Positions 2,190 to 64,000 of a DNA stretch of 64,000 nt are shown here, piece after piece. Each line of letters starts with the position of its first letter. The stretch's first letter is position 1. Source of the DNA: a virus. The notes under the pieces were generated by a model. The model worked only from the letters and a program-made list of their open reading frames with translations. It was not told the DNA's origin and did no database searches. Location of the stretch: the IMG/VR virus record IMGVR_UViG_3300021185_001174, positions 56,811-120,810 of that record. One strand, given 5' to 3'. The translations under genes and the position numbers were made by a program.

Positions 2190-2203
2190 TTGTTAGTTTC
2201 CTC

Positions 2204-3466: not shown

Positions 3467-3483
3467 TTATCCCTGGTTCCCAT

Positions 3484-4728: not shown

Positions 4729-6185
4729 TTATATAACCTCTTAAAGTCTTCCGTCATCATTGCATTAAAATTAGGTGCACTTGAAAAGTTGCCTTTATAT
4801 CTTAATATAATATTACATACTGCAACTGGGCCAATGAATAAAGTAAACTTTAAATTGGCGGCTCCAGAGCCTGGGTCAAATGCTTGTTTTGCACCTGGAG
4901 TATATTTCATTAATGGTTTGCCTTGAGAAAATAAATCATCTAGTTTACTTGATACTGAATCAATGTCTTTATACTCTCCGCCTTCTACTACAACACCTTT
5001 CTTAGGGCCGTAATCTCCAACGCCTGTAACTAGTGCAAAATCGAAATTAACTTTTTGTAATTCTTTTAAGTCGGACTTAAATATTAATTGAACTAGAATA
5101 TTTGAGAATAAGTCTGACTTGGATAATATTGTTTCACCCATCATTTTAAATAATGTTCTTTTACCTTTTAATACTCTATTAATAAGGTCATTGGGAATTC
5201 TATTAACATACTTTTTCCAGTTCTTAGTATTTACTGGATTCTTGTTAAGGTCATCAAATAAGTCATCAGACATCATATCAGGATATCTTTTTCTTAGTCT
5301 CTGAGCCAGTTTAATTACATGCACATAAAATCTACCTGCATCTAATTCTACATCTTCTTTTAATTTTTTAAGTTTCGGTTCATTAAGTAGCTTTGTAAAT
5401 GATTTATTAATAAGGGTTGGGTCTTCTTCTGTAACCCTTTTCTTTTTCTTTAAAGATACTCCTAGAAATTTATTACCTTTCTTAATAATAAAGTCAGATG
5501 AATTAAAATCTTGCATTCCATATTTTGACATTTGGAATTGTTTTACATCTTTATCCCATGACTGACCAGTAAGATAAACCATATCAGCATTACCATATCC
5601 TGCGTCAATAATAACATTAGCGGCCGATACTGCCTTACATAAATTTGGATAATCTCCTTCAAGAGAATCCACTTGACTCTGTTTATAACCTTTAACTTTC
5701 TTTAATTGAGCTCTTACCAATTGAATCATTGCATCCATTTCATCAGAATTAGTAATTTTATGTTTTGATGGGAAGAGACATAATGCAGCAGTCATAAGCT
5801 CATGAGGGTCATCACCTAAAGAACTACGGCCACCCATTGGTCTAGCATTTACATAGATTGCTTTATCCATATCTTTATGTTTAAAGTAATAATCTTTTTC
5901 TGCTCTGGCACCTGATATCTTAATAAGTTCTAAATTTGGTTCTTTTTCAATAATTTCTCTAGCGAGTGTAGAGAATGTTCTTCTGTTCTTATCTGGCATT
6001 AATTGAGAAATACCAATCTTCTTTGAATTTGATTTACCAGACCTGAGGTCTAATTCAACTTCAGTATCTACAGATGAAATTGCATCATCTATGGCCTGTA
6101 CCAACTTTACTGCATTCAGATTATCGTCAGTAGTTGAAAGAGTATCGAGTTCCTCTGTCATAAAACTGTTTTTAAATCTTATCAT
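4725..6185 (-). CDS. Putative PD-(D/E)xK-fold nuclease
   Basis: 486 aa. HELMTA ... SSDFIIK ... GVSLKK pattern (E / D / SxK variant). Confidence 0.5.
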   Translation of the reverse strand: MIRFKNSFMTEELDTLSTTDDNLNAVKLVQAIDDAISSVDTEVELDLRSGKSNSKKIGISQLMPDKNRRTFSTLAREIIEKEPNLELIKISGARAEKDYYFKHKDMDKAIYVNARPMGGRSSLGDDPHELMTAALCLFPSKHKITNSDEMDAMIQLVRAQLKKVKGYKQSQVDSLEGDYPNLCKAVSAANVIIDAGYGNADMVYLTGQSWDKDVKQFQMSKYGMQDFNSSDFIIKKGNKFLGVSLKKKKRVTEEDPTLINKSFTKLLNEPKLKKLKEDVELDAGRFYVHVIKLAQRLRKRYPDMMSDDLFDDLNKNPVNTKNWKKYVNRIPNDLINRVLKGKRTLFKMMGETILSKSDLFSNILVQLIFKSDLKELQKVNFDFALVTGVGDYGPKKGVVVEGGEYKDIDSVSSKLDDLFSQGKPLMKYTPGAKQAFDPGSGAANLKFTLFIGPVAVCNIILRYKGNFSSAPNFNAMMTEDFKRLYK

Positions 6186-6255: not shown

Positions 6256-6263
6256 TATTTATA
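6256..6263 (-). promoter_or_regulatory. T4-type late promoter (gp55)
   Basis: TATAAATA, intergenic, about 70 bp upstream of the 6185 start. Confidence 0.75.
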
Positions 6264-42525: not shown

Positions 42526-42696
42526 TTATTCCTCTTCGGTATTAACTGTAGCTCTATCTTGTAGTGTTGATGCCACTTCGATTTTCTTAGCATCTAATGC
42601 TGCAGTTAACTTGTCTGCCATAATACCATTAAATGCATTATTAGCAGAAACATTATCGCCATTTTTTAAATTATCAATTAAATTTTCAATAGTCAT
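42526..42696 (-). CDS. gp67: Prohead core protein (gp67-like, 56 aa)
   Basis: Hand translation MTIENLIDNLKNGDNVSANNAFNGIMADKLTAALDAKKIEVA...; late promoter at 42717-42724. Confidence 0.7.
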   Translation of the reverse strand: MTIENLIDNLKNGDNVSANNAFNGIMADKLTAALDAKKIEVASTLQDRATVNTEEE

Positions 42697-44843: not shown

Positions 44844-46568
44844 TTATTGTCCAGCTACTTCGGAGAATTCAACTCCGGTTCTGGTTGCTACAAAATTCAA
44901 TGTAATGAAGTTAATTGACCTAGTAGGTTTAACGTATATGTCAGCCACAAATCTATTACCATCTACTACTGCAGAATTGTTATTTGTTTCATCACATACT
45001 ACTTTAAAGTCTGTTACGCCTCTTCTTCCTTTTACATCCCTCATAAATGGTTCTACCAAGTTTCTAAACTGAGCTCTAGTAAATTCATCGTTGAATTCAA
45101 ATAGTTGTGCCTTAGCAGCAGTACTAATTGCTTTCTCTAATACGATAAATAATCTTCTTACATTGATTCTATCGAATGCTGAAGCTCTAGAAGCCAAAGT
45201 TTTATCTCCAAATAGTACTGTTCCCTGTCCAGGTAGTGATACTATAGGATTTACTTTACCTACATAAAGTGAATCTCTTTGTGCCGCAGTTGGGTTATAT
45301 GCTAACTTAGTAATACCTCTTAATTGCCCACGATTTACACCAGCTGGTGAGAACCATGCATCTGCAACTTGGTCTGTATTAACTGCAAGACCTGCAACTA
45401 AACCAGAAGCACCAATCCATTCATATTGGTCATGGTATTTATTATAAACATATACTGCTCCACCATCTAGTGTTGCGTATGAAGAGCTAGTTAAACTATC
45501 CTTATATGCTAATACATTAGTTACAGCTGTTGCTGAAGCAATACCCTTGGTATCTGCTACTGGAGGTGAGATGAAAGCCATACAATCTTTTCTGGCTTCA
45601 CAAACACTGATTAGTTTTTCACCAATAACATCTGCACCATTTGCATCTGGAATAGCAAAAAGAAGTGATACATCAACTGTATCCACATCTTGGAATAATC
45701 CAAGACCTGCTGTTACTTGAGCAGCTGCCACAGTTCCATCAACACCACCTGATAGTGAATCTACTAATACTGTTGCAGAAGTTTGATATTTACCAGCTGC
45801 TATTGCAGGGTCTGATGAAATAGGTAAAAGTTTAACCTCAGCAATAGTTTTTCCTGAACGGGTATGTTCAGCCGCTGCAGCACCAAACCATATCCACTGG
45901 GATTCTCTATTAATTACTTCTTTATAGTAGAGTGAAGAACCGTTTACATCTTTTGCATCTAATGCTTGAGATAAGAAACCAAAAGTTTCTAATACAGTAC
46001 CTTGAACACCACTAATTAAACCATCTTTGTCAACTACTACTACGTGCAGTTCATCATTTACACCTGCACCATCTTGACTTACAGCATAGTCTGAAGTAGC
46101 CGGAGCCCCTTCAAATAATCCTTTATAGTCAGCAAAGGTTGAGTTAGTATATGCTGAAGAACTAGATACTACAAGTACTTTTAAGCCATTACCTAAAACA
46201 CCTGGGCATCTTGCGTGCCAGTCGCCGGTTAGTGTTGAACCAAGATAGTCATCTTCGTTTTCTATTAATGTCGCACTACTTTCTGTAGTACATGCGTTTT
46301 TTGCCGATGAATCGACAACTCTAATTACCTTTAATGCGTTTCCATACTTTAAGAATGATGCCGCTGTTAAAAAGTGATTAGCGTTTGCTGGAGTAGGTGT
46401 AGAAAAGATACTGCCCATTTCATCTTCCGAAGAAACTAGTGTTATCTTATTTACAGGACCCCAATTAAATTCTCCCACAAATCCACCAATAGATGATGAA
46501 ACTGCTGGGACAACATTTGTTGCGTCAATTTCTTTGAATTGAACGCCGGGTGAGACTTGAAATGCCAT
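44844..46568 (-). CDS. gp18: Tail sheath protein
   Basis: QVSPGV, WFSPAG, RINVRRLF, FEFNDEFTR and SINFITLNF. Confidence 0.98.
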   Translation of the reverse strand: MAFQVSPGVQFKEIDATNVVPAVSSSIGGFVGEFNWGPVNKITLVSSEDEMGSIFSTPTPANANHFLTAASFLKYGNALKVIRVVDSSAKNACTTESSATLIENEDDYLGSTLTGDWHARCPGVLGNGLKVLVVSSSSAYTNSTFADYKGLFEGAPATSDYAVSQDGAGVNDELHVVVVDKDGLISGVQGTVLETFGFLSQALDAKDVNGSSLYYKEVINRESQWIWFGAAAAEHTRSGKTIAEVKLLPISSDPAIAAGKYQTSATVLVDSLSGGVDGTVAAAQVTAGLGLFQDVDTVDVSLLFAIPDANGADVIGEKLISVCEARKDCMAFISPPVADTKGIASATAVTNVLAYKDSLTSSSYATLDGGAVYVYNKYHDQYEWIGASGLVAGLAVNTDQVADAWFSPAGVNRGQLRGITKLAYNPTAAQRDSLYVGKVNPIVSLPGQGTVLFGDKTLASRASAFDRINVRRLFIVLEKAISTAAKAQLFEFNDEFTRAQFRNLVEPFMRDVKGRRGVTDFKVVCDETNNNSAVVDGNRFVADIYVKPTRSINFITLNFVATRTGVEFSEVAGQ

Positions 46569-46631: not shown

Positions 46632-46639
46632 TATTTATA
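46632..46639 (-). promoter_or_regulatory. Late promoter (gp18-19)
   Basis: TATAAATA within the palindrome TATTTATAAATA. Confidence 0.8.
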
Positions 46640-46651
46640 AATAACATTATC

Positions 46652-48094
46652 CTAGTGGTCATTCTTATCATTAGGTGCCGTAACTTCACTCAACATGAAT
46701 TGTCTATTAGGATTAACTGCCACCTTAAACTTAGTAAGTAATATTCTATTTACTAACATTTCGGATGCAGTATCTTTAAGAGTTAGTCCTAATTCTACTT
46801 TATATTTTTTATTATTAAAGATTAGATTGTGTTCAATAATTGGTCTTACATCAAAGAGTTTTCTAGCTCTCCTTGCTTCGGAAACACCTATTACTTCACT
46901 TCTAAACTTCTTCCCATTCTTAACCCATTCTACAAAATCACCATCAGCTTCAAGTTTATCAACATGAAACATAGTTGCCGATGCAGAGTTACCTGTATCA
47001 AATTTTGCCCTGATTGGGTCTTTTTCTAAACCTTCTAATATGACTGTTTCAATAAATCCAGCCTCTTGTCTCATAATAGGTCTTCTATTTAAATCACTTG
47101 AGAAGAAATCTATAATTAAACCTACCATATCTTTATCTGTTTTCTTACCCAATGATGAACCACTATTAGGGTCATATGCATTAAAGTGTGACCTAATGCC
47201 AGGTGAACCATTTACTTCTAATAAGTAGTAATCATCTTTTACCTTACAATGGTCAACTCCACAATACCAAGCCCCTGTCGACCTAGCCGCGGCTACTACT
47301 AATTCTTTTTCTTCATTAGATAATGTATATGGTCTTGTCTTTGCACCTAAGTGGACGTTATTTCTAAACTCGCCGTTATCTTCTTCTCTTATTCTCTCTG
47401 CGGCACCTATAATATTACCACCCACAACAAGAGTTCTAATATCTGATTTAATATCTAAGAATTGTTGTAAGAGTAAGTCTGCATCATATTTCCATAAAGA
47501 TTGAGCTACGGATACTAGTGATGCCATATCATTTACCTTAGATACTCCAACACCTTGTGTTCCCGTTAAAGTTTTTATGATTACTGGAAACTTACCACCA
47601 ACTCTTTTATGAGCATCTTCTATAGACTTTATATTATTTAAAATAGAAGTTTTGGGGGTGGGTAAATTATTTCTTTCTAATAGTAATGTATTGGCCATCT
47701 TATTATCACAAGCCAACATTGACTCTAAATCATTTACTAAAAAGAAACCAATACTTTGTAATGAAGATACAATTGCTTGAGCAGATAAACTTTCTAGTGC
47801 TCCAGCCCTAACAAAGATAATAGTATTATGTGTTTCTAGTTCTATGGAATTATCTTTACCGTCAGCATTCTGAATAGTTACACTACCAATCTCTACATCA
47901 TTTTGAGATATCCATGCTTCATCAACATAGATTTGGTCGAATGCTATTTTCTTGGCATTACATATCTCTTCGGCAATCTCTGCAAAAGTTCCTTCTCCAG
48001 ATTCCTTCTTACCTAAAACGGCAACGTGTAGATTATCCTGCTTTATTGGCTCTTCAAATTCTTCTACTACAAAATAATCGTTAAAATTTTTCAT
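46652..48094 (-). CDS. rimK: RimK-family ATP-grasp ligase fused to a C-terminal retropepsin-like (RimB-type) domain
   Basis: DNKM, PVIIKTLTGTQGVGV, DIRTLVVGG, FRNNVHLG and LEVNGSPG, then AKFDTGN...RPII...MLVNR. Start moved to MKNFNDY at 48094 (TAATG overlap with gp17). Confidence 0.9.
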   Translation of the reverse strand: MKNFNDYFVVEEFEEPIKQDNLHVAVLGKKESGEGTFAEIAEEICNAKKIAFDQIYVDEAWISQNDVEIGSVTIQNADGKDNSIELETHNTIIFVRAGALESLSAQAIVSSLQSIGFFLVNDLESMLACDNKMANTLLLERNNLPTPKTSILNNIKSIEDAHKRVGGKFPVIIKTLTGTQGVGVSKVNDMASLVSVAQSLWKYDADLLLQQFLDIKSDIRTLVVGGNIIGAAERIREEDNGEFRNNVHLGAKTRPYTLSNEEKELVVAAARSTGAWYCGVDHCKVKDDYYLLEVNGSPGIRSHFNAYDPNSGSSLGKKTDKDMVGLIIDFFSSDLNRRPIMRQEAGFIETVILEGLEKDPIRAKFDTGNSASATMFHVDKLEADGDFVEWVKNGKKFRSEVIGVSEARRARKLFDVRPIIEHNLIFNNKKYKVELGLTLKDTASEMLVNRILLTKFKVAVNPNRQFMLSEVTAPNDKNDH

Positions 48095-49704
48095 TAGTAT
48101 TGTTGCCCCTTCCATTTTTGTTCAAACCATACGTTACCATCACCATCACCGACACCTGCTGGAGTATCTTCTCCATCGTCAATGAATCCAAACGGAACCA
48201 TATCGTCCTGTATTTCTGCTAATCTTTCTTTATATAGCATGTTCTTTATATCTATATCAGTTATACCATTAAACACATCGGTTGATGTGAACCATGCGAA
48301 CATAACCAAATTCATCATTAAGTCATCATGGTTAGGAGCTATTGCTTGATAACTACTACCCTTAGAAACAAATGTACTCATTTCTATAATTGTCTGTGCG
48401 TCATATATAATCAACTTCTTCTGTTCTATTAAATCTTTTACTGTAGAACACCCAATACGTTTTACTCTTCTGGTCATTGTAGCACCAATTGCATTTGCCT
48501 TTAAAGAGGATTCAACAAACATATGTTCGTATTCTAAGTCATAATATAATCCATTACATACAACCGCACCTTGGTCATTACTTTCTATAACAACATAAGC
48601 TTCATTATATAAATTTGCATACTTATATATCATATCAGGCATTAACATTGGAGATATATTATTATCTCTGAATATTGCAACCTGTTCAAATACTGGAGTA
48701 GATACATCTATAATTGTAAAGGTAGAATAATCTTGTCCTCTCCCTTTACAAACATCTACTGTCATGATATAATTATGAGTAGGTATTGGGTCCTTATAGA
48801 TAAATATATTCTCTTTATATTTAATAGGGTCTATGGCTACTTGAGATAATAAATGATTCGCATCTATTAAAGTATTACCACGACCATGAAACGTATTACC
48901 GAACTCTTGCTCAAACTGTAGAGCAGAAGTATTTGAAATAGTTTCATCTTTCCACTTCTGGTCTCTCCCTGGTACGTCCCACCAATCTACTCTAAAGGGT
49001 TTATACTCATTTGTTCCTTGAGATGCCCCTTCCCATATCTTGTGATATATATTACCAATACCATTAGCTGTAGAGGTAATAATAACCTTCGTATCTTTAC
49101 CAGAAGATACCACTGGATAAGTTGATGTATAGAACTGTGCATCATTCTCTACAAAAGCAAACTCATCTAAGAACAATAAGTTAATAGAAAGACCACGAAT
49201 GGATGAACCACTAGTTGCCGCTGCCATTATCTTAGAGTTATTACTAAACTCAATGGAGCCTTTATTCAAAGCCTTACAGCCAGGTTGTAAGAAAAAGGGT
49301 AAGTTCTCTAACATTAGAGTCACCCTTGCTAACATTTCCCTTGCTGTTGCACCCTTATTTGCAAGTACTGCAATAGTTTTCTCTGGATGAAAACACGCAT
49401 ACCATAGTAAATAAGCAACAGATGAAATAGATTTACCACTCTGTCTACATGCCAATACTATATTAAACCTATTCTTATTAAAATGGTTAAACATCTTTTC
49501 TTGGTAATCATATAAATCAAATGGAACAAGTCCCTCATCAAGGGATATAACTTTTAAGTATTTACGAGCAAAGTAAGCAGGTTCTGCCATACACTTGGCA
49601 TACTCTAATACTTCATCTTTAGTAAACTGAGTTTCTACACCATCACGTTTTACTGAAGGGTTACCTAGATAACCAAATTCGTTATTCTTTATTCTCTGCA
49701 TCAA
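48094..49704 (-). CDS. gp17: Terminase large subunit
   Basis: ACRQSGKS, LFLDEFAF, ITSTANG, FEQEF and HDDLMM. Confidence 0.98.
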   Translation of the reverse strand: MMQRIKNNEFGYLGNPSVKRDGVETQFTKDEVLEYAKCMAEPAYFARKYLKVISLDEGLVPFDLYDYQEKMFNHFNKNRFNIVLACRQSGKSISSVAYLLWYACFHPEKTIAVLANKGATAREMLARVTLMLENLPFFLQPGCKALNKGSIEFSNNSKIMAAATSGSSIRGLSINLLFLDEFAFVENDAQFYTSTYPVVSSGKDTKVIITSTANGIGNIYHKIWEGASQGTNEYKPFRVDWWDVPGRDQKWKDETISNTSALQFEQEFGNTFHGRGNTLIDANHLLSQVAIDPIKYKENIFIYKDPIPTHNYIMTVDVCKGRGQDYSTFTIIDVSTPVFEQVAIFRDNNISPMLMPDMIYKYANLYNEAYVVIESNDQGAVVCNGLYYDLEYEHMFVESSLKANAIGATMTRRVKRIGCSTVKDLIEQKKLIIYDAQTIIEMSTFVSKGSSYQAIAPNHDDLMMNLVMFAWFTSTDVFNGITDIDIKNMLYKERLAEIQDDMVPFGFIDDGEDTPAGVGDGDGNVWFEQKWKGQQY

Positions 49705-52792: not shown

Positions 52793-53053
52793 TTAACTCC
52801 AGATAGCCGTAGCTATTGTTTGTATTAAAGTATTTTCACCACTTACATCAGTTGCATCACCATCATCTTCTACAAATTTAGATAAAGTGTATGTTCTTGC
52901 AGGTAAAGTACTAACATCTCCATTATCATCATATGTATCAAAATATGATACTATAATTACAGGATGCTTTGCATTAGTAGTATCTTCTGCACTACTATTT
53001 TTTGCAGGTGTTACCACTACTTCGCTTAATTCACTTGTTTTTGTAATTGCCAT
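52793..53053 (-). CDS. Small virion/fibre-associated protein
   Basis: 86 aa starting MAITKT; late promoter at 53102-53109 lies inside the upstream gene. Confidence 0.7.
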   Translation of the reverse strand: MAITKTSELSEVVVTPAKNSSAEDTTNAKHPVIIVSYFDTYDDNGDVSTLPARTYTLSKFVEDDGDATDVSGENTLIQTIATAIWS

Positions 53054-53054
53054 T

Positions 53055-56000
53055 CTATTTCTCCGATTTACTTTCGAGGGTTTTTATTCTTTCCTCTAAT
53101 CTATTTATAAGGGCTTGTTGCTCTTTCACAGCTTCTACTAATAAAGCTGTTATATTACCATAGTCTACCCCTAGTGACTCTGATTTTAAAACCCCGTCTT
53201 CTTCTATTCTATTATTATGTACTATCTCTGGTACTACTTCTTGAACTTCTTGAGCAATGAAACCAATACTTTCTTTATCATTTCTTTTCCATTGGAAACT
53301 TACACCATTTAGATTTTGTACTTTTTCTAATGCTCCTTCAAGGGGTTTTATATTTTTCTTTAATTTTCTATCTGAAGATGTTGTAGTTGAATATGCAATT
53401 ACGTTTCCATCTGCATGAAAATCTCCACTAGACATATTAAGATGGAATTCTCCAGTATTACTACCTGATGAACCTTGACCAAAGGTAAGATAATCATAAC
53501 CAGAAGAGGCCTCTACGGCTTTAATCATTCTATAACCGCCACAATATAGTTCCCAAGTGTCGGCTGCAGAAAATGATGTATATGTATCAGTATCACCTTT
53601 ATGAATAACTTTATTAGATACCGATAAATCACCACCAGTACTAATACCCCAACTATCTGCCGTTACATTATTACCTCTAAAGCGAATCGTGTCACCTGAA
53701 GTATTACCAAGGTATGTATTTGAAGCATAGATGTAACAGTTACCTACATCAGATTTAATATAGAAATCACCACCTGTATAGGCTGTACGAGTACCAGAGT
53801 CATTGTAAAAATAACCTGTACTTCTATCTACTGCAAAATATGTACGAGCGGCCCCTATATATCCGTCAGTAGTAATAGTAAATCTTTTAGTACCATTACC
53901 ACTTCCACTTGTAAATTGTAAATTACCTGCAGTATTTGTTTGCGCGTCTGCTGACTCATAAATTTGCCATAGGTTTCCGCCGTTCCATGCTAGTCCTTCA
54001 CTTGCACCTGGGTCATTAAATGTTATTTTATTTGCACCAGTAATGGTACCATTTGTCATTGCAATTGTTTGGCCATTCATTGTTAACTGGCCAGACATTG
54101 TTCCACCAGATTTTTGTAGAGCACCATTGGCAGTAGTAGTAGTACTAGTTAAGACAGCATTTCGTGCTGCGATATCTACTCCATCTACTGTTCCTGCAAC
54201 AGTAACATTACCATTTGATCCACTTACACTAAACTTAGCTCCACTAGAGCCAACTTGAAAGTTTCCATCGGTTCTTAATACTCCAGCACCACAATATATA
54301 CCACTAGTAAAATCAACGTCAGGATTTAATCTTAGCCATGAGTCATTAAATCTGACTATTTCTTTCCCATCACCTTCTATTTTACTACCATTGAACTTTC
54401 CATCACCTCTAACATGGATATTTCCCGCAGAATCCCAACGAAGTGAGTACTGATTACTGCTTATGTTTGTAGCAAGTTCTCCACCTTGATGTCCCTGAAG
54501 TCTTGGTCCATCAACAGTTGACCCAGAATAACCTGTACTCACTTTTACAAGATGATGATTAGTGTCACCAAGACTAAGCATTTGTCCTGATGATAATGCC
54601 AGTCTGCTTGTATGAGTTTTAACCCCTGACATTGACTGGTCGCCTGTAGTTCGAATTACAGTAGAATCAACCGCAATGTCATTGGCATTTGCTGTGATGC
54701 CTGAACCACCAATTACGTTGAGTGTTACTCCCCCTGAAGTACCTCCACCAGTTAAACCAGTACCTGCACCAACTGATGTAATATCACCAGCTGTCGGAGT
54801 ATTTGTAAAATTATTATAATCTAAATAGTATGAACCTTCTTGATTATCTAACTTATCAGCATCTAATCCTGAACCAGCACCATCCGAAGTAGAAGTCCAT
54901 ATCTCTCTCCAGCCCGGACTATAACTAGCACCCTGATTGTTATATACGAACATCTTGCCAGCAGAGCCGCCAGTATTTGGAGCAATAACTAATCCTGTAA
55001 TATTGCCTTGAACATTATCAGTTGAATTATCAGTCCACCATAACCATGATGTTCCAGCAAGTTCCGTAAGCCTACCCGCATCTGTTAAGTTACCATTACC
55101 AGCATATGACCAACTTGTTTTATGAGCAGTTAACTTAGAATCAAATGCGTCCTTGCCTAGTGCTTCTGTAAGTAGTGCAGATGTTGTTGTGCTTGTATAG
55201 TTTGATTCGCCAGTATGTCTAAAGTGGTCTAATGATGTCTTGGCATTTAAAGCACTTTGTAATCCGTCAACATTTGAGACTACATGATTATGTGAGTCAT
55301 CGGCAACTGCTGCTGTAAGTGTAAAGTTAGCCGAACCATCAAAAGAAACACTTCCACTTAAATCTCCACTTAATGTCAATGTTCTTGCTGTAGTCCACTT
55401 ATCAGCATTTGGGTGGTAGGCTTCTGTAAATAATCTATGACTAAATGCATATCCTATATTAGTCGAAGAATCAAGCTCCAGTGCGTACGGAGTCTCCCAA
55501 CCACCAGAATCATCTCTATCTGGAAGAATATAAAATCTATTACCGTTTACGTGAAGCCAAAAATCATCGCCATTAGTATCATTAAACTTCATCTGCGGCG
55601 ATGTACCAGAGATAGTTAACTGTCCAGTCATTGTTCCACCAGCTAGTGGTAGTTTATTAGTAATACTTGAGTCTGAAGCAGTTATAAATCCATAACTGTT
55701 ATTCCAGTTTGTATTACCATCTGTAATATAACCTGCACTTGCATGATTACCCCAACCGTATGCGGTATTCCAGTTAGTAGAGTTACCACCAGATGCAGTA
55801 ATGGTTGACGGAGTGTCTAATGCACCCGTCTCCATATTTATATTAAATTTAGTTGCGCCAGCCCATTTGTAAAGTATTTTGTCAGGATTGCCTTCATCAT
55901 AAAAAATACCATAGTTAGGATACTGGTCTCTGCTAATACCCCAGATAGTAGCATCAGGCGCACCAGTTGTGGCTCCATATACATTACCGCTGAAAGAAGT

Positions 56001-59000
56001 AGCAGATATATTTGCAGATGTAGTTGCACCTCTGCCCGTAACTGAACTTAATGTATCTGTTTCAGTGTAAGACGTTAAATACCCAGCACTCGCATGGTTA
56101 CCCCAACCATAAGCTGTGTTCCAGTTAGTAGAGTTACCGCCACTTGCATTAACTGTTCCTGATGCAGTAACTGACCCTGCCACTGATAGGCCTCCAGTAC
56201 CCCATGTATTTAATACATAACTGTTTGAACTATTATAAATTCTTAAATTTAATACCTTATTTGTAGAACCAGAAGCTGAACCGATATGCCAATAAACATT
56301 TGTACCATCGTGAGTATTTGAATATGCATGTCCTGGAAAATAAGTTGATGAACCAGTCAAATTAGCATTTTGAATAGCATTACTATTCATGTTTAGTGTG
56401 CCGGTCATTGTTCCACCAGCTTTTGGTAGAGCAGCATTAGCAGTAGTATATGCAGTATTCCAGTTAGTAGAGTTACCTCCAGTGGCCGTTACTGTTCCAT
56501 TAACTGATATACCAGCCGAACTTGTGTTTAGTTTATTAGAACCTTGATAAGCGAGATACACTGAATTAGAGTCATAATACATTTGTCTTCGCCAAGCACC
56601 TACATCAGCTCCATCGGCTATGCTACTTGCTGAAATATTAAACTCTCTCCAACCAGAACTTTGTGACCACTCGTCATGGAAAACATATCCAGTTTCAGTA
56701 GATACTTCATTCGTATTTGAATCGGATTTATGTCCAACTCTAATATTAAAGTTTCCTTCTCCATCATTCCATGTAATCCAATGTTTTCCTGATTCGAAAG
56801 AAAGAGAATCTGCATTATTTAATGCTAATGTACCGGTCATGGTTCCACCAGACTTAGGTAATACTGTACTAAAGAAAGTATTATTATCATCAACTGCAGC
56901 TGCTAACTCGTTTAGAGTGTTTAATGTTCCTGGAGCTCCATCAATTAAATTATCAATCTGTGTTCCTACATATGTTTCAGTTGCATATCCTGAGAGTGAT
57001 GGAATTGTTGTAGAGTTAAAAGCATTTGAACCAAGTTCTCTTGTTCCAATAATTCCGCTTCCATCTATCATTACGGCGGTTGCTTCCGAGCTTTGGCCTG
57101 ATAGATTTTGTAATGTTAAATTATTCGCAGTTATTCTTCCATTTACATCTAAAAGAGAATTTGGTGTGAATAATCCACTACCAATACCAACATTACCATT
57201 TGCTCTAATAAACATTTTAGTTGAAGGCGCCGCTTGACCTGATGTTGATGTTTTAAATTCTAATCTACCATTGTAGTTTCCATCATCTGTAGAAGTAATT
57301 TGTGTTGTATTCCATATATTAGTATTATTAGGATGGCCACTTCTAAATGTTAATTTTGCTGAACCTAAGTTATATTGTGATGCAATTGTAATACCTGTAT
57401 TTCCAGAATTAGGGTCGCCTACTTGTAATTGTGTAACAGCACTATCAGTACCTATAGCTACATTACCTTGATAGTCAACTCTCATTCTTTCTACTAAAGA
57501 AGTTCCTGCTGCTCCAGAAACAGTGTTAGCGTTGTTTGTGTATACAACAAATGCTCCACTTCCTTCCTTCACTTGGCTATCAGCATTACTATTTTGACCA
57601 ACCTCTGCTCCAATTCTTACTTGAGGAGTTTCGTTTGTATTGTCATCTTCAAAGCTAAAATCAATAAAAGACTTCTGCTGTGCAATATCTGCACCAGTAT
57701 CATGGTGAAGTGTTAATAACGTAGCATCTCCAGTGTTTACCACTGTACTTGTTATAGCACCACTAGAGATAGTTCCAATATTTACAAGATTTCGTGATGA
57801 ATCTATTACTGCAGTTGTATTTACATAATATCCACCATTTACATAAAGACCGCTAGAATATAATCTTGACCTCCATGTGCTTCCTAGTCTTGTCTCAAAT
57901 CTATCTGAATATCCTAATATTGAAGTTGTAGGAATTCCTCCAGTACCTGTAGCACTAAATGCGATTACTGAAACATTATTTGCTGGATTAAATAATCTTA
58001 TATTTTCGTTGTAGTTATTGTAATTTGTTCCATCATTAATCCAAACCGACCCATTTTGTATTGTTCCTGCAAAGGTAGCGTTACCTGAAGAGTTAATTTC
58101 AAGAACTGGCGTACCACCACTGGGTTGTACTCTAAATGTTGAACCTGATGCTGAAAGTTCTACATTACCACTTGAGTCTTGTAGTTTAATTCCTGCTATA
58201 CCATCTGTTGATTGAAATGTAGCGGCAATATTAGCTGTGCCACTATTGACACTCAAAACACCACTAGAGATAGTTCCTACGCTGGTAAAGTTAGCACTAT
58301 TAAATGTAATGTCTCCAGTAGATGAATTTATACTTAACTGACCTGTATCATCTGTTATACCATTCCTTACTCTTACTATTCCATCAAAATATGCACCTTG
58401 ACTAGAATTAACATATAGGTAATTGTCACTTACTAAAACAACACCATCATTTCTAACTCTAAATAGGTCTGAATTAGAACTATCTTTTACAGTTAATGCG
58501 TCTGCTGTATTATCAGATGTACTTCCAGTTGATGTAATAGCACCACTAGAGATAGTTCCTACGTTAGTAGCTGGGTTATTTTTAAAATCTACTGCACTTC
58601 CAGTTAACGCAAACTCTACGCCGCCACTTGCACCATGAGTATAAAAATTTAAAACATTTGCATTAGCAGCAATTAAAGGTTTATTAGAACCATATCCACC
58701 AGCCCATTGTATATCCGCACCATCATTTAGTTGTAATTTGCCTGAAGAGGTTATAGTGCCACTAGAGATAGTTCCTGCAAAGGTAGCGTTACCTGAATTG
58801 TCTATATTAAAAGTTTCAGTTGTACTTCCTGCACTATTATCAAAAAATTGAAACTGCAATTTGTCGCCACTAGTTCCTCTTATCAAATAAATATCATTTG
58901 AATCTGAAAAAGAGTTTGAGTCTGTAAAACCTAAAGTTGGTCTTGTTGAGTTTATGTATATACTTGCACTTCCTGAATTAGAGGTAGAAGTAATATTACT

Positions 59001-60959
59001 TGCAGTTATAGCACCACTAGAGATAGTTCCTGCAAAAGTACCATTACCACTATTATCTACTCTGAACCTTGTAGTGGTAATTGGATTAGTAGAGCTTGAT
59101 GCTATTGCTCCAGTCTCATTGTCCCAAACTCCATAAAACAAACCTCCATCTGCAACAACTAATGTTCCATGACCTCCTGTTGAGTTTCCTCCAGCTTTAA
59201 GGTAAATATAATCTGATGTTGCTGAAGTCCATCCCCAATAAAGTAGGTCATGTTGTGGAACATTACTAAATGCAGTATCGGCGTGCAACAAAGTACCCAT
59301 ACCGGTATATATAAGTTTTCCACTACCGCCACTAAGAGTTACATCACCTGCAAAATTACCACTTCCTATATTTAATAAATTCCTAGAATTATCAATAACA
59401 GTAGATGCTCCAACCTTATAAGAAGAAGATGTAACTACGCCAAAAGTAGATGTTCCTGTACTTGTAATAGCACCACTAGAGATAGTTCCTATGTTGGTTA
59501 GATTACGAGAAGAATCTATAACTGTGTCTGCACCAATTTTAAGATTACCATTATAAATGCTTACATCTGTGGTGCTACCATCTCTTCCAAACCATACAGT
59601 TGATGCTTCATCGGCAGGAAATATATTTAATCCATCATTCCATGAATAAAATCTCCAATCATCTCCTGCATCATCTGTTCTCTTTAGTATTAGTTGATTC
59701 GTGTTACTTGTAGCAGTTATAGTACCACTATTAATAGTTCCTGCAAATGTAGCATTTTGACTTGAGTTTAATGTAAGAGCTACTGTTGTACCATTTGTAG
59801 CAAGTTTTAGTTGGCCATCGTTTGTTCCATATAATTGTGATTTTTGTGCATTAGAACTATTGTAGAATTGTACGCCACCAATATTTTCTGTAGCACCAGT
59901 TCTACTTGTTTTTATATCAAGCTTACTAAATGAACTACCTTGATTAATAGTAATAGTACCACTAAAATCACCAGTACTACTATATACTCCATTCCATCTA
60001 TGTACTGTATTACCTAGTGTTGCATTATTGGATACAGTTGTGCTATGTGGAATGAAACCTTCTGTCGCATAAAAATGTACATTATTACTATTACCACTTT
60101 TATAGAAATAAGTATTACCAAATCTTAATTTTTCACTTGCAGTAAATTTTAAATCTTTATTAAGAGTCATTTGAGCATTTGTATTATCCCAAATAAACTC
60201 TGCATTGGCACCTGATATTTTAAATCCACCACCATCGTTTGTTGCTGCAGTTCCACCAACACCAGCAGTAATTACTTTATCTGATACATCAAGTGTTGTT
60301 GTATTAACTGTATTTAAATCGCCAGTAATACTTAAATCACCAACAATATCTACACCCGTTGTGGTAACTGTTAGTTTAGTAGTACCCGCTCTTTGAATTT
60401 GTAAATCTTCATCATAAGAGCCAATAAGACCAGTGTCAACTGTAATTCCTTTATTAAAGTAATATCGTGCTCTATCTGTTTCAAAATGAGACCAACTAGT
60501 ATTCATGGCCCCTACTTCTGTTTGGCCATAATTGGTTTTTATTCTTAATGAGTTTCCACTACCTGAAGATAGTTGGGTATTTGAATCATCTAAATCGATT
60601 CTACCTGTTACATCTATGCCTGTTGAGGTTGTAGCAATTTTGTCGGAATTGTTATGGTATAAAGTTACTGCACCATTTTCACTAGCATTAATCATAAGTT
60701 CGCTATTTGCAGCGTTCATTAGATTAAAAGAACTTGTACGTACTTTTAAGTTACCTGTACCATTATCATGTATATAACTATTACTACCATCATGATAGAT
60801 TTTTAAATCGCCACTATTACCAAATTTGGCTTCAACATTATCTAAATAATGTATATGGGATGATGCTGTGACAGCTACGAGCTGTCCTGATGAATTGACT
60901 ATTAATGAGCCGCCTACTTCTAGGCCGTTCTTTATTCGAAAGTTATGGTCAGTTGCCAT
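53055..60959 (-). CDS. Very long tail fibre / receptor-binding protein with C-terminal intramolecular chaperone (peptidase S74)
   Basis: 2634 aa, Gly/Ser/Thr/Asn-rich repeats; SDRKLKKNIKPL...GFIAQEV...VDYG...LVEAVKE C-terminus. Confidence 0.9.
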   Translation of the reverse strand: MATDHNFRIKNGLEVGGSLIVNSSGQLVAVTASSHIHYLDNVEAKFGNSGDLKIYHDGSNSYIHDNGTGNLKVRTSSFNLMNAANSELMINASENGAVTLYHNNSDKIATTSTGIDVTGRIDLDDSNTQLSSGSGNSLRIKTNYGQTEVGAMNTSWSHFETDRARYYFNKGITVDTGLIGSYDEDLQIQRAGTTKLTVTTTGVDIVGDLSITGDLNTVNTTTLDVSDKVITAGVGGTAATNDGGGFKISGANAEFIWDNTNAQMTLNKDLKFTASEKLRFGNTYFYKSGNSNNVHFYATEGFIPHSTTVSNNATLGNTVHRWNGVYSSTGDFSGTITINQGSSFSKLDIKTSRTGATENIGGVQFYNSSNAQKSQLYGTNDGQLKLATNGTTVALTLNSSQNATFAGTINSGTITATSNTNQLILKRTDDAGDDWRFYSWNDGLNIFPADEASTVWFGRDGSTTDVSIYNGNLKIGADTVIDSSRNLTNIGTISSGAITSTGTSTFGVVTSSSYKVGASTVIDNSRNLLNIGSGNFAGDVTLSGGSGKLIYTGMGTLLHADTAFSNVPQHDLLYWGWTSATSDYIYLKAGGNSTGGHGTLVVADGGLFYGVWDNETGAIASSSTNPITTTRFRVDNSGNGTFAGTISSGAITASNITSTSNSGSASIYINSTRPTLGFTDSNSFSDSNDIYLIRGTSGDKLQFQFFDNSAGSTTETFNIDNSGNATFAGTISSGTITSSGKLQLNDGADIQWAGGYGSNKPLIAANANVLNFYTHGASGGVEFALTGSAVDFKNNPATNVGTISSGAITSTGSTSDNTADALTVKDSSNSDLFRVRNDGVVLVSDNYLYVNSSQGAYFDGIVRVRNGITDDTGQLSINSSTGDITFNSANFTSVGTISSGVLSVNSGTANIAATFQSTDGIAGIKLQDSSGNVELSASGSTFRVQPSGGTPVLEINSSGNATFAGTIQNGSVWINDGTNYNNYNENIRLFNPANNVSVIAFSATGTGGIPTTSILGYSDRFETRLGSTWRSRLYSSGLYVNGGYYVNTTAVIDSSRNLVNIGTISSGAITSTVVNTGDATLLTLHHDTGADIAQQKSFIDFSFEDDNTNETPQVRIGAEVGQNSNADSQVKEGSGAFVVYTNNANTVSGAAGTSLVERMRVDYQGNVAIGTDSAVTQLQVGDPNSGNTGITIASQYNLGSAKLTFRSGHPNNTNIWNTTQITSTDDGNYNGRLEFKTSTSGQAAPSTKMFIRANGNVGIGSGLFTPNSLLDVNGRITANNLTLQNLSGQSSEATAVMIDGSGIIGTRELGSNAFNSTTIPSLSGYATETYVGTQIDNLIDGAPGTLNTLNELAAAVDDNNTFFSTVLPKSGGTMTGTLALNNADSLSFESGKHWITWNDGEGNFNIRVGHKSDSNTNEVSTETGYVFHDEWSQSSGWREFNISASSIADGADVGAWRRQMYYDSNSVYLAYQGSNKLNTSSAGISVNGTVTATGGNSTNWNTAYTTANAALPKAGGTMTGTLNMNSNAIQNANLTGSSTYFPGHAYSNTHDGTNVYWHIGSASGSTNKVLNLRIYNSSNSYVLNTWGTGGLSVAGSVTASGTVNASGGNSTNWNTAYGWGNHASAGYLTSYTETDTLSSVTGRGATTSANISATSFSGNVYGATTGAPDATIWGISRDQYPNYGIFYDEGNPDKILYKWAGATKFNINMETGALDTPSTITASGGNSTNWNTAYGWGNHASAGYITDGNTNWNNSYGFITASDSSITNKLPLAGGTMTGQLTISGTSPQMKFNDTNGDDFWLHVNGNRFYILPDRDDSGGWETPYALELDSSTNIGYAFSHRLFTEAYHPNADKWTTARTLTLSGDLSGSVSFDGSANFTLTAAVADDSHNHVVSNVDGLQSALNAKTSLDHFRHTGESNYTSTTTSALLTEALGKDAFDSKLTAHKTSWSYAGNGNLTDAGRLTELAGTSWLWWTDNSTDNVQGNITGLVIAPNTGGSAGKMFVYNNQGASYSPGWREIWTSTSDGAGSGLDADKLDNQEGSYYLDYNNFTNTPTAGDITSVGAGTGLTGGGTSGGVTLNVIGGSGITANANDIAVDSTVIRTTGDQSMSGVKTHTSRLALSSGQMLSLGDTNHHLVKVSTGYSGSTVDGPRLQGHQGGELATNISSNQYSLRWDSAGNIHVRGDGKFNGSKIEGDGKEIVRFNDSWLRLNPDVDFTSGIYCGAGVLRTDGNFQVGSSGAKFSVSGSNGNVTVAGTVDGVDIAARNAVLTSTTTTANGALQKSGGTMSGQLTMNGQTIAMTNGTITGANKITFNDPGASEGLAWNGGNLWQIYESADAQTNTAGNLQFTSGSGNGTKRFTITTDGYIGAARTYFAVDRSTGYFYNDSGTRTAYTGGDFYIKSDVGNCYIYASNTYLGNTSGDTIRFRGNNVTADSWGISTGGDLSVSNKVIHKGDTDTYTSFSAADTWELYCGGYRMIKAVEASSGYDYLTFGQGSSGSNTGEFHLNMSSGDFHADGNVIAYSTTTSSDRKLKKNIKPLEGALEKVQNLNGVSFQWKRNDKESIGFIAQEVQEVVPEIVHNNRIEEDGVLKSESLGVDYGNITALLVEAVKEQQALINRLEERIKTLESKSEK
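55770..56477 (-). repeat. Three exact 18-bp copies of CCAGTTAGTAGAGTTACC (GNSTNW module)
   Basis: Copies at 55770, 56121 and 56460. Confidence 0.85.
57760..59489 (-). repeat. Six exact 17-bp copies of CCACTAGAGATAGTTCC (GTISSG module junction)
   Basis: Copies at 57760, 58261, 58543, 58759, 59014 and 59473; degenerate copy near 59725. Confidence 0.9.
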
Positions 60960-61007
60960 TTATATGTTCTCCGTTTCACTTTCCACGGTGATGTTATTAT
61001 GTATTAC

Positions 61008-61015
61008 TATTTATA
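61008..61015 (-). promoter_or_regulatory. Late promoter (long fibre gene)
   Basis: Intergenic TATAAATA. Confidence 0.8.
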
Positions 61016-61019
61016 CAAT

Positions 61020-64000
61020 CTAAACAGTCAAACTATGACAAACAACTTTAAATGTCATACTATTTATTGATGTTGGTGTAGCCAATAACCTAAAGTTACT
61101 AGAACTAATATCCGCATCGAATGTAGCCTCTACCGAACTACCAGTATGAACTTCTCCAAACTCTGTAATGTTTGCTGTAGTACCATCATGGATTGCTAAT
61201 ATCTCTGTTGAGTGATAAGTACTATCTGTAGTATTAGTAATCTGAATTGTAAACCTAGCACTTCTAAAGTCAGCAATTGGAAATGTATGAATCGCCACTT
61301 GAGTCGTTGCTGAAGTAGATGAAGTTGTTGTATCAATACCATATTCTTCTACTTGAAGTTTTGCCTTAACAGTAGTTTTACCAATTCCAACCCGGCCTGT
61401 GGAATCAAATGTAATTAAATTAGCTTCAACACCACTAGCTCCAGGCCTAAATAACAATCTTCCACTAATATCTCCATTAATCCAATACTTGTTACTACCA
61501 GCTTCACTAAATCTTATATATTGGCCATAACCAGTATCACTATCAATAAATAATGAGGAATGGCTAGTATCTGATTCGATTTTTACTCCTGAATCACCAC
61601 TAAATTTAACGTGTAAAGGTTGAGCTGGAGAAGATGTTCCAATACCAACTTTTTCTGAACTATCTAATGTAATTCCTCTATTACCTACAACTCCTCCGCC
61701 ACCATTTTGAATTTGTAATTTATTAGAAGAGTTATCCAATATTATTTGAGCATAATTATCATCATCTGTATCACCCAAAGCCAATTGAACATAGGCTGTA
61801 TTTGGTGATGTAATAGCTACAGCAGTATTGCCTGTCCCATTAACTTGCAATTTTCTTGTTGGAGAAGTTGTTCCGATACCAACATCACCTAAATGATTTA
61901 TTATCATTCTGTCGGTAGATGTTGTTTGGAATTTAAAAGCACCACCAGATGAGGATGCATTTAATATAATCCCCGCGCCAACTAAACTATTACTTTCAAA
62001 TGTTTTTACAGCCAAATACCTTGAAGCATGTCCACCGCTTATTCTTACAGCATCTGATGTATCACTGCCATTTGCAACATGAAATTTTGTAGCGGGAGCA
62101 GTTGTTCCAATACCAACTTTACCATCGTTTTTAATGCGCATGGCCTCTATGGCGGCGCTACCATTATAAACACCAAACTCAATACCACCGTCACCGTGAA
62201 GTCTTGCTGATGTACCAGTTTTATAGAGCCTTACATTACTATTATTAACCCAAACAGTAGTTGGCATAACTATAGCATCACTGTTTGTTTCTATGATTGG
62301 ACCATAACTAACAGCATATCCAGATTTTTCTCCAACCTTAAAGGATTTTCCATTATCATGTACTTCAAATTTCTTGGATGGCGAACTAGTTCCGATTCCA
62401 ACATTGCCTGATGAGTCTATTCTCATGCGTTCAGAACTATTAGTATCAAAAATTAAAGGATGATTACTATAAGTTCCAATATTTGCTGTGGAGTTCTGAG
62501 CGTAAGCCAGAAGATTACAATTATTAGTAGTGTCTTTTAAATCAAGAGTAGGTGATGAATCACCATGAGCTTTAATATTATTTGAAAGGTGAAGGTCTTT
62601 CCATTGGTAACTAGCATTTCCTAAATCTTTAGTTCCGTTTACATTAGCACCAGAGTAATCAGTAGGAACTATAGCTTGTGAAGTTGTACCTATACCAACA
62701 CCACCATTACTTGCACTTCTTGGGTCAAGAACCATATAAGAAACTGCACTAGCTCTACTACCAATAGAGCCAACTGTTGCTGAGTCCTTTCTTAACTCTA
62801 ATAAAGTGCCATCGCTAGTTTTTCTATTAAGCAATAAAGGCAAATCACCATCTCTAACAATGGAAACAAAATCATTAGTGCCGTCTATTCTTATTCCGTT
62901 TGTTGTATTGTCTGCAACAGTTTTACCAAATAAAGCAATACCTCCTGAGGTAATACGCATTCTTTCGTTTGAGCCCATGTTTATGACAAAAGGCATACTA
63001 CCACCTGATGACCAAGTTTGATGAATACCAAATGCTCTATTTGCTTCAGTTGCATCATCAGTCATAAATAATTTAACTCTTGAATTTCTTGAGCCATCCT
63101 GTACACCTAAGTGATACCCTACTGTTTGACCTGCAGTATTAGATGTTACTGCCATAAATCTATCAGTATTACCACCAATGTTCGTCGATGATTGCGCAGT
63201 ATATGATGTATGCCCAAGAATAAAATTATTTCCATCATTTAGTTTAAGCATAGGAGTTGTACCACCGGAGTTATAAAAATTTAAATCTCCTGCTGCATCT
63301 ACGCCTATCTGATAACTTTCAGTCCCACTATTTTCTTCTATATGAAATGCCTGATGGGAAGTATTTGATTTAACCATAAGTGGGAAAGAAGATGTGGTTT
63401 CTTTACCACCCACTACTAAATTTTTATTAAAGTTCCACTCGTCATTAGCTGATGTATATGTAAGTGATGGATTAGTTCCACCCGTATCAACTACAATACC
63501 AGCACCATTTGCATTAGCTGCACTTCCAGCATTATTAGCTACTGTAATTGTTTTATCTGTAACATCAAGATTTGTAACCGATGTACTATTGATATCACCT
63601 ACGATATTTAAATTACCTGATACTGCAAGGTCGCCTGTTATACCCAACTGTGTTGAAGACAAGAACATCTTCTGTGTTCCAGCAATATCAAATCTTATAA
63701 TATCTTCATCAGCAGTTTCTTCTACTTGAATTTTTGTATCACCATCATTATCTTCAATAGATGAACCGCCACCACCACCAGATGCATTTCCCCAAATTAA
63801 TGAAGTGCCTGATGTAGGAACTTTGAGAACTTGACCTGCTGAACCAATAGTAGTTGGGAATGTGTATGCAGCATTAAATGTAATTTCACCAGTATCATCT
63901 ACTTGAAGTCTTGTATTTTGTGTTCCGCCTTCACTGGCTGCTTCTGCCAACTGGAATCTTCCACTAGAATCTATAGATTGTACCCAAACTTGACCTGTAC
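61020..64000 (-). CDS. Second fibre / virion structural protein; N-terminus lies beyond the window end
   Basis: Repeated (M/L)RI...G.VGIGT..P modules. The frame stays open from 63950 to 64000 (TGQVWVQSIDSSGRFQ), so the listed start is not the true start. Confidence 0.85.
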   Translation of the reverse strand, partial: TGQVWVQSIDSSGRFQLAEAASEGGTQNTRLQVDDTGEITFNAAYTFPTTIGSAGQVLKVPTSGTSLIWGNASGGGGGSSIEDNDGDTKIQVEETADEDIIRFDIAGTQKMFLSSTQLGITGDLAVSGNLNIVGDINSTSVTNLDVTDKTITVANNAGSAANANGAGIVVDTGGTNPSLTYTSANDEWNFNKNLVVGGKETTSSFPLMVKSNTSHQAFHIEENSGTESYQIGVDAAGDLNFYNSGGTTPMLKLNDGNNFILGHTSYTAQSSTNIGGNTDRFMAVTSNTAGQTVGYHLGVQDGSRNSRVKLFMTDDATEANRAFGIHQTWSSGGSMPFVINMGSNERMRITSGGIALFGKTVADNTTNGIRIDGTNDFVSIVRDGDLPLLLNRKTSDGTLLELRKDSATVGSIGSRASAVSYMVLDPRSASNGGVGIGTTSQAIVPTDYSGANVNGTKDLGNASYQWKDLHLSNNIKAHGDSSPTLDLKDTTNNCNLLAYAQNSTANIGTYSNHPLIFDTNSSERMRIDSSGNVGIGTSSPSKKFEVHDNGKSFKVGEKSGYAVSYGPIIETNSDAIVMPTTVWVNNSNVRLYKTGTSARLHGDGGIEFGVYNGSAAIEAMRIKNDGKVGIGTTAPATKFHVANGSDTSDAVRISGGHASRYLAVKTFESNSLVGAGIILNASSSGGAFKFQTTSTDRMIINHLGDVGIGTTSPTRKLQVNGTGNTAVAITSPNTAYVQLALGDTDDDNYAQIILDNSSNKLQIQNGGGGVVGNRGITLDSSEKVGIGTSSPAQPLHVKFSGDSGVKIESDTSHSSLFIDSDTGYGQYIRFSEAGSNKYWINGDISGRLLFRPGASGVEANLITFDSTGRVGIGKTTVKAKLQVEEYGIDTTTSSTSATTQVAIHTFPIADFRSARFTIQITNTTDSTYHSTEILAIHDGTTANITEFGEVHTGSSVEATFDADISSSNFRLLATPTSINSMTFKVVCHSLTV

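Follow-up and report, generated by a model that had tools for sequence, protein, structure and literature searches.

In a 64,000-nucleotide stretch of the IMG/VR virus record IMGVR_UViG_3300021185_001174 (positions 56,811 to 120,810 of that record; hereafter the window), we analyzed a minus-strand gene that codes for a 480-residue protein in which a RimK-type ATP-grasp ligase domain is followed by a retropepsin-like domain, and which is lodged between the genes for the large terminase (TerL, gp17-like) and the tail sheath (gp18-like). The record, from an uncultured marine T4-like phage, is 120.8 kb long, has a G+C content of 35%, and carries almost every gene on the same strand. PHROG searches recovered a T4-type late module around the fusion gene, with gp13-, gp14- and gp15-like genes and those for the small terminase (TerS) and large terminase upstream, and with the tail sheath, tail tube, portal, prohead protease and scaffold genes downstream (Table 1). 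An original prediction, made from the sequence alone, had described this gene as a combined writer and eraser of protein glutamylation, coupled to the terminase gene; the coupling is plain in the sequence, where the ATG start of the fusion gene (48094-48092) and the TAA stop of the upstream open reading frame (ORF), 48094-49704, share an A to give TAATG. Because the homologs begin at an MK.F motif, position 48094 is likely to be the genuine start; a longer version from an in-frame ATG at 48115, which would yield 487 residues, was rejected on account of this conserved beginning.

Domain architecture and expression of the fusion gene

The ATP-grasp domain is recognized by the PF08443 model with 124.3 bits against a cut-off of 21, and the closest sequences of solved structure are the RimK proteins of E. 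coli and Pseudomonas (E about 2e-22 with phmmer; ligase cores about 30% identical). Across 44 homologs that share 26-74% identity, K132, K174, R244, D281, E293 and N295, as well as the Gly-rich loop G178-G183, are invariant or nearly so, and these ATP-grasp residues of the fusion protein align to the motifs of E. coli RimK. The preceding domain is divergent, and the Pfam Rimk_N model finds no match in it. The C-terminal domain scores 26.1 bits, marginally below the cut-off of 27, with PF05618 ('Zn_protease'), the RimB/retropepsin-like family; homologs that align over the full length of the protein score 37-55 bits, above that cut-off. The KFDTGN motif of this domain occupies residues 364-369, and in the same 44 homologs D366, G368 and N369 never vary, while T367 is conserved in at least 90%, so that the Asp on whose conservation the original prediction had staked its case is retained throughout. 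A DTG-type motif is also present in the homologs from Pelagibacter phage Mosig and Yersinia phage YerA41.

The AlphaFold2 model of the protein, computed from these homologs, has a mean predicted local distance difference test score (pLDDT) of 89.3 and is disordered at residues 1-20 only. When the full model was searched with Foldseek, the top matches were the RimK structures 5zct, 5zk6, 7qys and 7qyr (E about 1e-21), on which the entire ligase part superposes with target-normalized template-modeling scores of 0.81-0.87. A model of residues 335-480 alone best matched a Legionella DUF785 protein (2pma) and the Pseudomonas RloA aspartic peptidases (9g58, 9g59), with E values of 3e-6 to 1e-5, and thereafter Ddi1 and the HIV/SIV proteases. 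The fold search thus resolves the borderline Pfam score of the C-terminal domain, which was the sole weak point of the assignment; we attribute none of these features to chance. Profile matches, fold and conserved residues all agree with the earlier reading of a RimK ATP-grasp domain joined to a retropepsin, and the sequence and the model lead us to predict with considerable confidence that the protein is a bifunctional enzyme, an alpha-L-glutamate ligase combined with a RimB-type peptidase. In the clade with a conserved TerL-sheath location, the protein ends in a conserved acidic tail, N-D-x-x-D-H (46655-46684), which is predicted to be disordered.

The late-promoter-like box at 53102-53109 heads a block comprising an 86-residue ORF, the genes for gp13, gp14, gp15, TerS and TerL, and the fusion gene. 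No terminator-like site was found on the coding strand between this box and the fusion gene, and neither a promoter nor a terminator of the fusion gene's own was detected within the late block, where a scan for sigma-70 promoters and terminators returned fewer matches than shuffled sequence did. We infer, in keeping with the late timing first suggested for it, that the gene is expressed late, closing the gp13-gp17 block as its last cistron. The 83-nucleotide spacer between its stop codon and the start of the sheath gene holds overlapping TATAAATA boxes on both strands (46632-46643), and the one on the minus strand is likely to be the late promoter of the sheath gene.

Table 1. Features of the window discussed in the text (coordinates are those of the window).
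Feature	Position	Strand	Basis or remark
RimK-RimB-type fusion gene, 480 aa (P0001)	46652-48094	minus	ORF and translation; stop codon 46654-46652 included
N-terminal leader, aa 1-20 (MKNFNDYFVVEEFEEPIKQD)	48035-48094	minus	disordered extension before first beta-strand; pLDDT < 55
Divergent pre-ATP-grasp N-domain, about aa 22-130	47705-48031	minus	AlphaFold2 secondary structure
RimK-type ATP-grasp catalytic domain, aa 130-302	47189-47707	minus	PF08443, E 5.8e-36
Retropepsin-like (RimB/PF05618) domain, aa 346-467	46694-47059	minus	PF05618 'Zn_protease', E 8.9e-6
Large terminase (gp17-like, TerL)	48094-49704	minus	PHROG, E 6e-60; stop overlaps fusion start
Tail sheath (gp18-like)	44844-46568	minus	PHROG, E 1e-130; own TATAAATA box at 46632-46639
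TATAAATA late-promoter-like box	53102-53109	minus	nearest one upstream of the fusion gene on the coding strand
56-aa ORF	42526-42696	minus	between portal and prohead protease genes (T4 gp67/68 position)
NMNAT-like nucleotidyltransferase with C-terminal DUF5824, 420 aa, start MKVKNFSDYIVEA	2204-3466	minus	Pfam, PHROG
DUF6267 protein, 414 aa, start MKRLTSYTPLHEA	3484-4728	minus	Pfam, E 6e-101
TATAAATA box	6256-6263	minus	about 70 nt upstream of 4725-6185, first gene of leader-bearing cluster

Family distribution, gene neighborhoods and domain fusions

A word-index search with the fusion protein produced at least 700 matches above threshold, many of them full-length (477-489 residues) and lying on contigs of up to 255 kb, and an exhaustive search of representatives at 50% identity gave 108 clusters at E < 1e-30. 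The 10 nearest ESM-Atlas clusters are each 91-100% viral where taxa are known. The family is large, viral as far as taxa are recorded, and apparently restricted to phages. A megablast comparison of the region with named phages gave no match, and our literature search found no paper describing this ligase-peptidase fusion of phages.

Among 26 IMG/VR loci, 24 have a fusion gene that is immediately preceded by the terminase gene and/or immediately followed by the sheath gene, down to 58% identity. In the closest named phage, C48C1 of the Kyanoviridae (TerL 71% identical), the terminase gene is followed by an 84-nucleotide gap and then by the sheath gene; no gene lies in this interval, and no homolog of the fusion gene was detected in C48C1. 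Because the order is kept in nearly all the loci and the corresponding interval of C48C1 is empty, we take the gene to be an accessory element inserted at the gp17/gp18 junction and fixed within a single clade, a survey of related phages thereby bearing out the insertion between terminase and sheath that had been read from this one genome. Elsewhere the ligase-peptidase module occupies other sites: in Mosig it lies between regA, which it overlaps, and the DNA polymerase gene; in YerA41 it follows the ribonucleotide reductase genes; and on two further contigs (L016 and L017) it sits inside a leader-bearing gene cluster whose counterpart by homology is the far end of the window with the adjoining part of its contig. 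The module is thus not bound to the interval between TerL and sheath.

Multiple homologs are joined to further domains. An N-terminal HxGH nucleotidyltransferase (GRFNPPTxGH; Pfam CTP_transf_like) is attached to the module in P0125, P0126, P0131, P0147, P0150 and P0153, and a C-terminal DUF5824, DUF3140 or DUF6321 domain in P0126, P0150 and P0153, while the 1325-residue P0129 unites DUF6267, nucleotidyltransferase, RimK and protease domains. On L017 the module, 67% identical to the window fusion, makes up the C-terminal portion of an ORF that runs to at least 851 residues (L017:4708-7260), the first 420 residues of which are 49% identical to the product of window ORF 2204-3466, and this ORF adjoins a DUF6267 gene. 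P0125, P0126, P0129, P0131, P0150, P0153 and the L017 protein accordingly constitute Rosetta-stone fusions of the nucleotidyltransferase and/or DUF6267 and/or DUF5824 with the RimK-protease module; in the window, the nucleotidyltransferase-DUF5824 and DUF6267 proteins are encoded by late genes separate from the fusion gene, behind the box at 6256. The proteins P0126, P0150, P0153 and P0129 are metagenomic polyvalent proteins of more than 1000 residues, and P0125 ends in an HNH_3 endonuclease domain.

The product of window ORF 2204-3466 displays the motifs GRFNPPTTGH and MSASKMR and belongs to a family with 561 phage records, mainly from cyanomyophages. Sequence searches of PDB and NCBIfam with it and with the DUF6267 protein gave no informative matches, and a literature search for DUF6267 and DUF5824 found no paper that mentions them.

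The N-terminal leader and the case for head packaging

The N-terminus of the fusion protein, MKNFNDYFVVEE, resembles the capsid-targeting sequence (CTS) of T4, MKTYQEFIAE (PMC8442874), which is cleaved by the prohead protease and suffices to encapsidate foreign proteins (PMC8442874, PMC3012670). Read as MKNFNDYFVVE|E, the leader ends in a gp21-type site, by resemblance only, and the genome encodes a gp21-like prohead protease (E 2e-77) and a gp22-like scaffold (E 5e-68). In line with the likeness to putative packaged proteins remarked on in the original prediction, similar N-termini recur on unrelated ORFs of the same genome, namely MKVKNFSDYIVEA on the nucleotidyltransferase, MIRFKEHFKIDE on a P-loop kinase, and MHSFLEHIEE, MKSFKDIWED and MIRFKNSFMTEE. 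The Mosig homolog begins with MQVQPFKNYLEE; genes on L016 and L017 begin with MKSFSAYLEL, MKSFKQFNEE and MKTFKQFTEK, and those of C48C1 with MLDFKNFITE, MLSFKQFVSE and MKKFKQYIDE. A leader pattern, written post hoc, matched five N-termini of the window genome against 0.14 expected, and the T4-derived pattern [FY][ILV].E matched within the first 14 residues in six cases against 2.06 expected (p 0.018). In the family itself, the strict motif stands at the N-terminus of 11 of 104 full-length representatives, compared with 0.06% of internal windows.

Window positions 1-6185 and the part of the contig upstream of them, which jointly span genome positions 52938-62995, hold about ten same-strand genes, most of which have a T4-CTS-like start of the form M-K/I-x-F-x-x-[FYH]-[ILVF]-x-E. 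They include the genes for a P-loop kinase-like protein (window 2-499 and upstream), the nucleotidyltransferase-DUF5824 and DUF6267 proteins, and proteins of 447 and 486 residues, and this run may be a phage 'internal protein' locus. In the deposited annotation of C48C1 (L035, 4130-5907) the cytidyltransferase is seemingly split, with CDS0088 starting MLSFKQFVSE and CDS0089 starting inside the HxGH motif (MNPPTIGHGK), which suggests that there is a frameshift or that a start codon was called incorrectly.

The fusion partners provide a connection to the virion. The cytidylyltransferase of the T4-like cyanophage S-CREM2 (ORF154) was found by mass spectrometry in CsCl-purified virions, and the authors of that study remark that cytidyltransferases and kinases are frequent in cyanophage virion proteomes (PMC10665884). 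This protein, gp154, is homologous to the product of window ORF 2204-3466 (34% identity, E 9e-33), begins with MKNFSSFLTEA, and carries the note '(virion protein)' in its record. The fusion homolog YerA41_066 is annotated as a 'structural protein', apparently from liquid chromatography-tandem mass spectrometry of particles, a method by which the YerA41 paper reports 63 proteins including polymerases; YerA41_066 itself is not traceable in that paper or its supplement. Given the leader in common with other proteins, the joining of the module to a virion-associated partner elsewhere and the late transcription, packaging into the head is the most economical account. The leader and the partner fusions lend indirect support to the packaging that had been suggested at the outset; packaging and injection of the fusion protein are plausible but unproven, and on the sequence evidence we judge them to stand in the balance.

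Building on the observed domain identities, conserved catalytic residues, folds, synteny and partner fusions, we propose a model whose timing, packaging, cleavage and target are inferred. The protein would be a phage-specific, self-contained module that writes and trims poly-alpha-glutamate: its RimK-family part would act as an ATP-dependent alpha-L-glutamate ligase that, by analogy with Pseudomonas RimK and RimB, adds glutamates to a Glu-terminated C-terminus, and its C-terminal part as a RimB-type retropepsin-like aspartic endopeptidase, which probably dimerizes across the ligase oligomer. By trimming the tail and stimulating the ligase, the peptidase might set a steady-state tail length without control by RimA or cyclic di-GMP (c-di-GMP). 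Transcribed late as the final cistron of the gp13-gp17 block, the enzyme would be directed to the prohead core by its disordered leader of about 12 residues, much as by the T4 CTS, and the gp21-type protease would remove this leader after [FY]-[ILV]-x-E. It would then be injected with the DNA alongside the leader-bearing NMNAT-like nucleotidyltransferase, P-loop kinase and DUF6267 protein, to act at once on a host protein. Taken as a whole, we give this proposal an even chance.

Several observations weigh against it. The leader patterns were fitted post hoc, and the a-priori T4-derived pattern is only about 3-fold enriched; the motif occurs in about 10-20% of family representatives, some of which begin at the first strand without any extension; and AT-rich 5' codons (AAA, AAT, TTT) could generate MK.F-type starts that have no targeting role. 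The authors of the S-CREM2 study allow for carry-over of abundant proteins (PMC10665884), and the YerA41 particle proteome is not stringent, as it also contains polymerases and ribonucleotide reductase, the latter flagged as particle-associated in the phage record. In both Mosig and YerA41 the neighborhood of the module is non-structural. The evidence for activity, packaging and cleavage of the fusion protein is, in short, indirect.

Part of this evidence is shared by an alternative in which the same enzyme remains unpackaged in the cytoplasm and acts late on a phage protein during assembly, for instance by attaching an acidic poly-Glu tail to a component of the head core, scaffold or phage tail or by setting the length of such a poly-Glu tail, the CTS likeness being coincidental or a result of AT-rich codon bias in the start region. 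It would account for the absence of the leader in several family members and the modest a-priori enrichment of the motif, and it fits the embedding of the fusion gene in, and its co-transcription with, morphogenesis genes in 24 related contigs. The 56-residue protein encoded between the portal and protease genes looked like a potential acceptor: it has the conserved core GDNV.AN..F...M..K...ALDAKKIE, ends in ...NTEEE, and has acidic-tailed homologs throughout. Nevertheless, its terminal residue is Glu in just 6 of 12 orthologs, that of the window included, and D, V or A in the rest, and this candidate was dropped for want of a conserved last residue; with it as the candidate examined, no conserved Glu-terminated acceptor encoded by the phage was found. 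Furthermore, the Mosig and YerA41 contexts do not suit a role in morphogenesis, the homologs of the fusion partners are virion cargo rather than building blocks, and C48C1 assembles a very similar virion without the fusion. We consider modification of a virion protein unlikely.

Substrates and relationship to known systems

None of the NCBIfam equivalog cut-offs is reached by the fusion protein: it scores 86.5 bits against 331 with the S6-ligase equivalog (NF007764), 121 against 350 with MptN and 85 against 300 with CofF, and with the broad RimK subfamily model TIGR00768 it falls at the threshold (143.3 against 143.4). Good evidence supports its identity as an alpha-L-glutamate ligase combined with a poly-Glu peptidase. 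Ribosomal protein bS6, the target favored in the original prediction, owes its place to the family name, and both the S6-ligase score, which is far below the cut-off, and the failure of the bacterial RimBK hybrid to glutamylate Pseudomonas RpsF (PMC11957791) speak against it; we retain it as the lead candidate only, and a tentative one. The peptidase side has a characterized precedent in RimB of Pseudomonas, a retropepsin-like endopeptidase that is specific for poly-Glu and also stimulates RimK (PMC11957791).

Alternatively, the enzyme might be an unpackaged instrument of host takeover, produced late or at any time when its operon is active, that re-sets glutamylation in the infected cell, on bS6 or a different protein of the host, as annotated for the cyanophage 'S6 glutaminyl transferase' genes. 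A match to PHROG 2599 and the frequency of separate RimK-only genes in cyanomyophages are in its favor, as are two features of Mosig, in which the module gene overlaps that of the translational repressor RegA and the record annotates an S21 gene, suggestive of an interest in the 30S platform. Late expression, however, would leave little time for reprogramming ribosomes, the S6-ligase cut-off is widely missed, and neither the leader nor the joining of the module to virion-associated partners is accounted for, so that we hold this option to be quite improbable. Least probable of all, and in our view a poor contender, is a non-protein substrate, in which an alpha-glutamyl tail is put on a small molecule (as by MptN and CofF) or free poly-alpha-glutamate is made, with the retropepsin as activator or length limiter and the fused nucleotidyltransferase in the same pathway: the MptN score above that of the S6 ligase, the stimulation by RimB of free poly-alpha-Glu synthesis by RimK (PMC11957791) and the frequent fusion of the module to an HxGH nucleotidyltransferase would suit it, but all equivalog cut-offs are missed, RimK proper gives the best sequence and fold matches, and the invariant active site of a retropepsin-like endopeptidase argues for a peptide substrate.

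Returning to the head-packaged module, a wider and distinctly speculative proposal, which we rather doubt as it stands, is that a conserved capsid-targeting leader of T4 type, M-K-x-F-x-x-[FY]-[ILV]-x-E, serves marine T4-like phages (Kyanoviridae and relatives) to load a changeable set of enzymes (NMNAT-like nucleotidyltransferase, P-loop kinase, DUF6267 protein and ligase/peptidase) into the head, sometimes as polyvalent proteins of more than 1000 residues, and that the ligase/peptidase, once injected, re-sets the poly-glutamate tails of host bS6 or of another Glu-terminated host protein within seconds of infection, before phage expression.

Few reversible modifications of a ribosomal protein are known in bacteria, that by RimK and RimB being one of them, and polyglutamylation is elsewhere most familiar from the tubulin of eukaryotes. 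A family that is large, apparently restricted to phages and abundant in ocean metagenomes, with both activities on one chain, would mean that this chemistry has been widely adopted by phages. Should the enzyme prove to be head cargo, it would represent a chemically new type among injected effectors that modify proteins, comparable to Alt of T4, and the leader that it shares with other proteins would allow injected proteins of uncultured marine phages to be predicted from sequence. The presence of the module in the cultured phages Mosig and YerA41 renders the system testable.

Among known systems, the RimK/RimB pair of the Pseudomonas rimABK operon resembles the fusion in coupling an ATP-grasp alpha-L-glutamate ligase with a PF05618 retropepsin-like peptidase with a DTG active site. 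That pair is encoded by two genes, whereas the phage protein is a single polypeptide that lacks a RimA or c-di-GMP partner and differs from Pseudomonas RimK in its divergent pre-ATP-grasp domain, late-gene context and N-terminal leader. The union of both activities on one chain, which the original prediction set against the separate rimB gene of Pseudomonas, has in fact a published counterpart: in 2025 a bacterial RimBK hybrid (Desulfotalea psychrophila DP2392), likewise a natural single chain of RimB and RimK domains, was described and its protease activity on poly-Glu tails demonstrated (PMC11957791). In that hybrid, however, RimB is N-terminal rather than C-terminal and a canonical Rimk_N is kept, and it is encoded mainly on chromosomes of Flavobacteriales and Rhodobacterales, not by phages. 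As the domain order is opposite, the phage fusion probably arose independently. The bacterial order recurs in P0259, from a Spirochaetales metagenome-assembled genome, and P0198 and other metagenomic proteins have the ligase-then-peptidase order but with canonical Rimk_N and PF05618 domains.

Cyanophages of the Kyanoviridae also encode a 'ribosomal protein S6 glutaminyl transferase' (PHROG 2599), which is, like the fusion, a phage RimK-family ATP-grasp protein. These genes, which are sited elsewhere in the genome, match the ligase part only (residues ~92-319, about 40-45% of the query), with identities of about 25%, and no match of theirs to the retropepsin domain appeared. With the internal proteins and Alt of T4, the fusion shares a short leader resembling MKTYQEFIAE and ending in [FY]-[ILV]-x-E, common to several unrelated late proteins; beyond the leader there is no homology, and the cargo predicted to be packaged here consists of enzymes of 400-500 residues. 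S-CREM2 gp154, a different enzyme from the fusion, has the same kind of leader and is a homolog of the nucleotidyltransferase to which the module is joined in other phages, so that the connection runs through domain fusions and the shared leader and not through homology. Against this background, what is new is a large and apparently phage-specific family with the ligase-then-peptidase order, linked by its leader and its fusions to enzymes that are probably head cargo.

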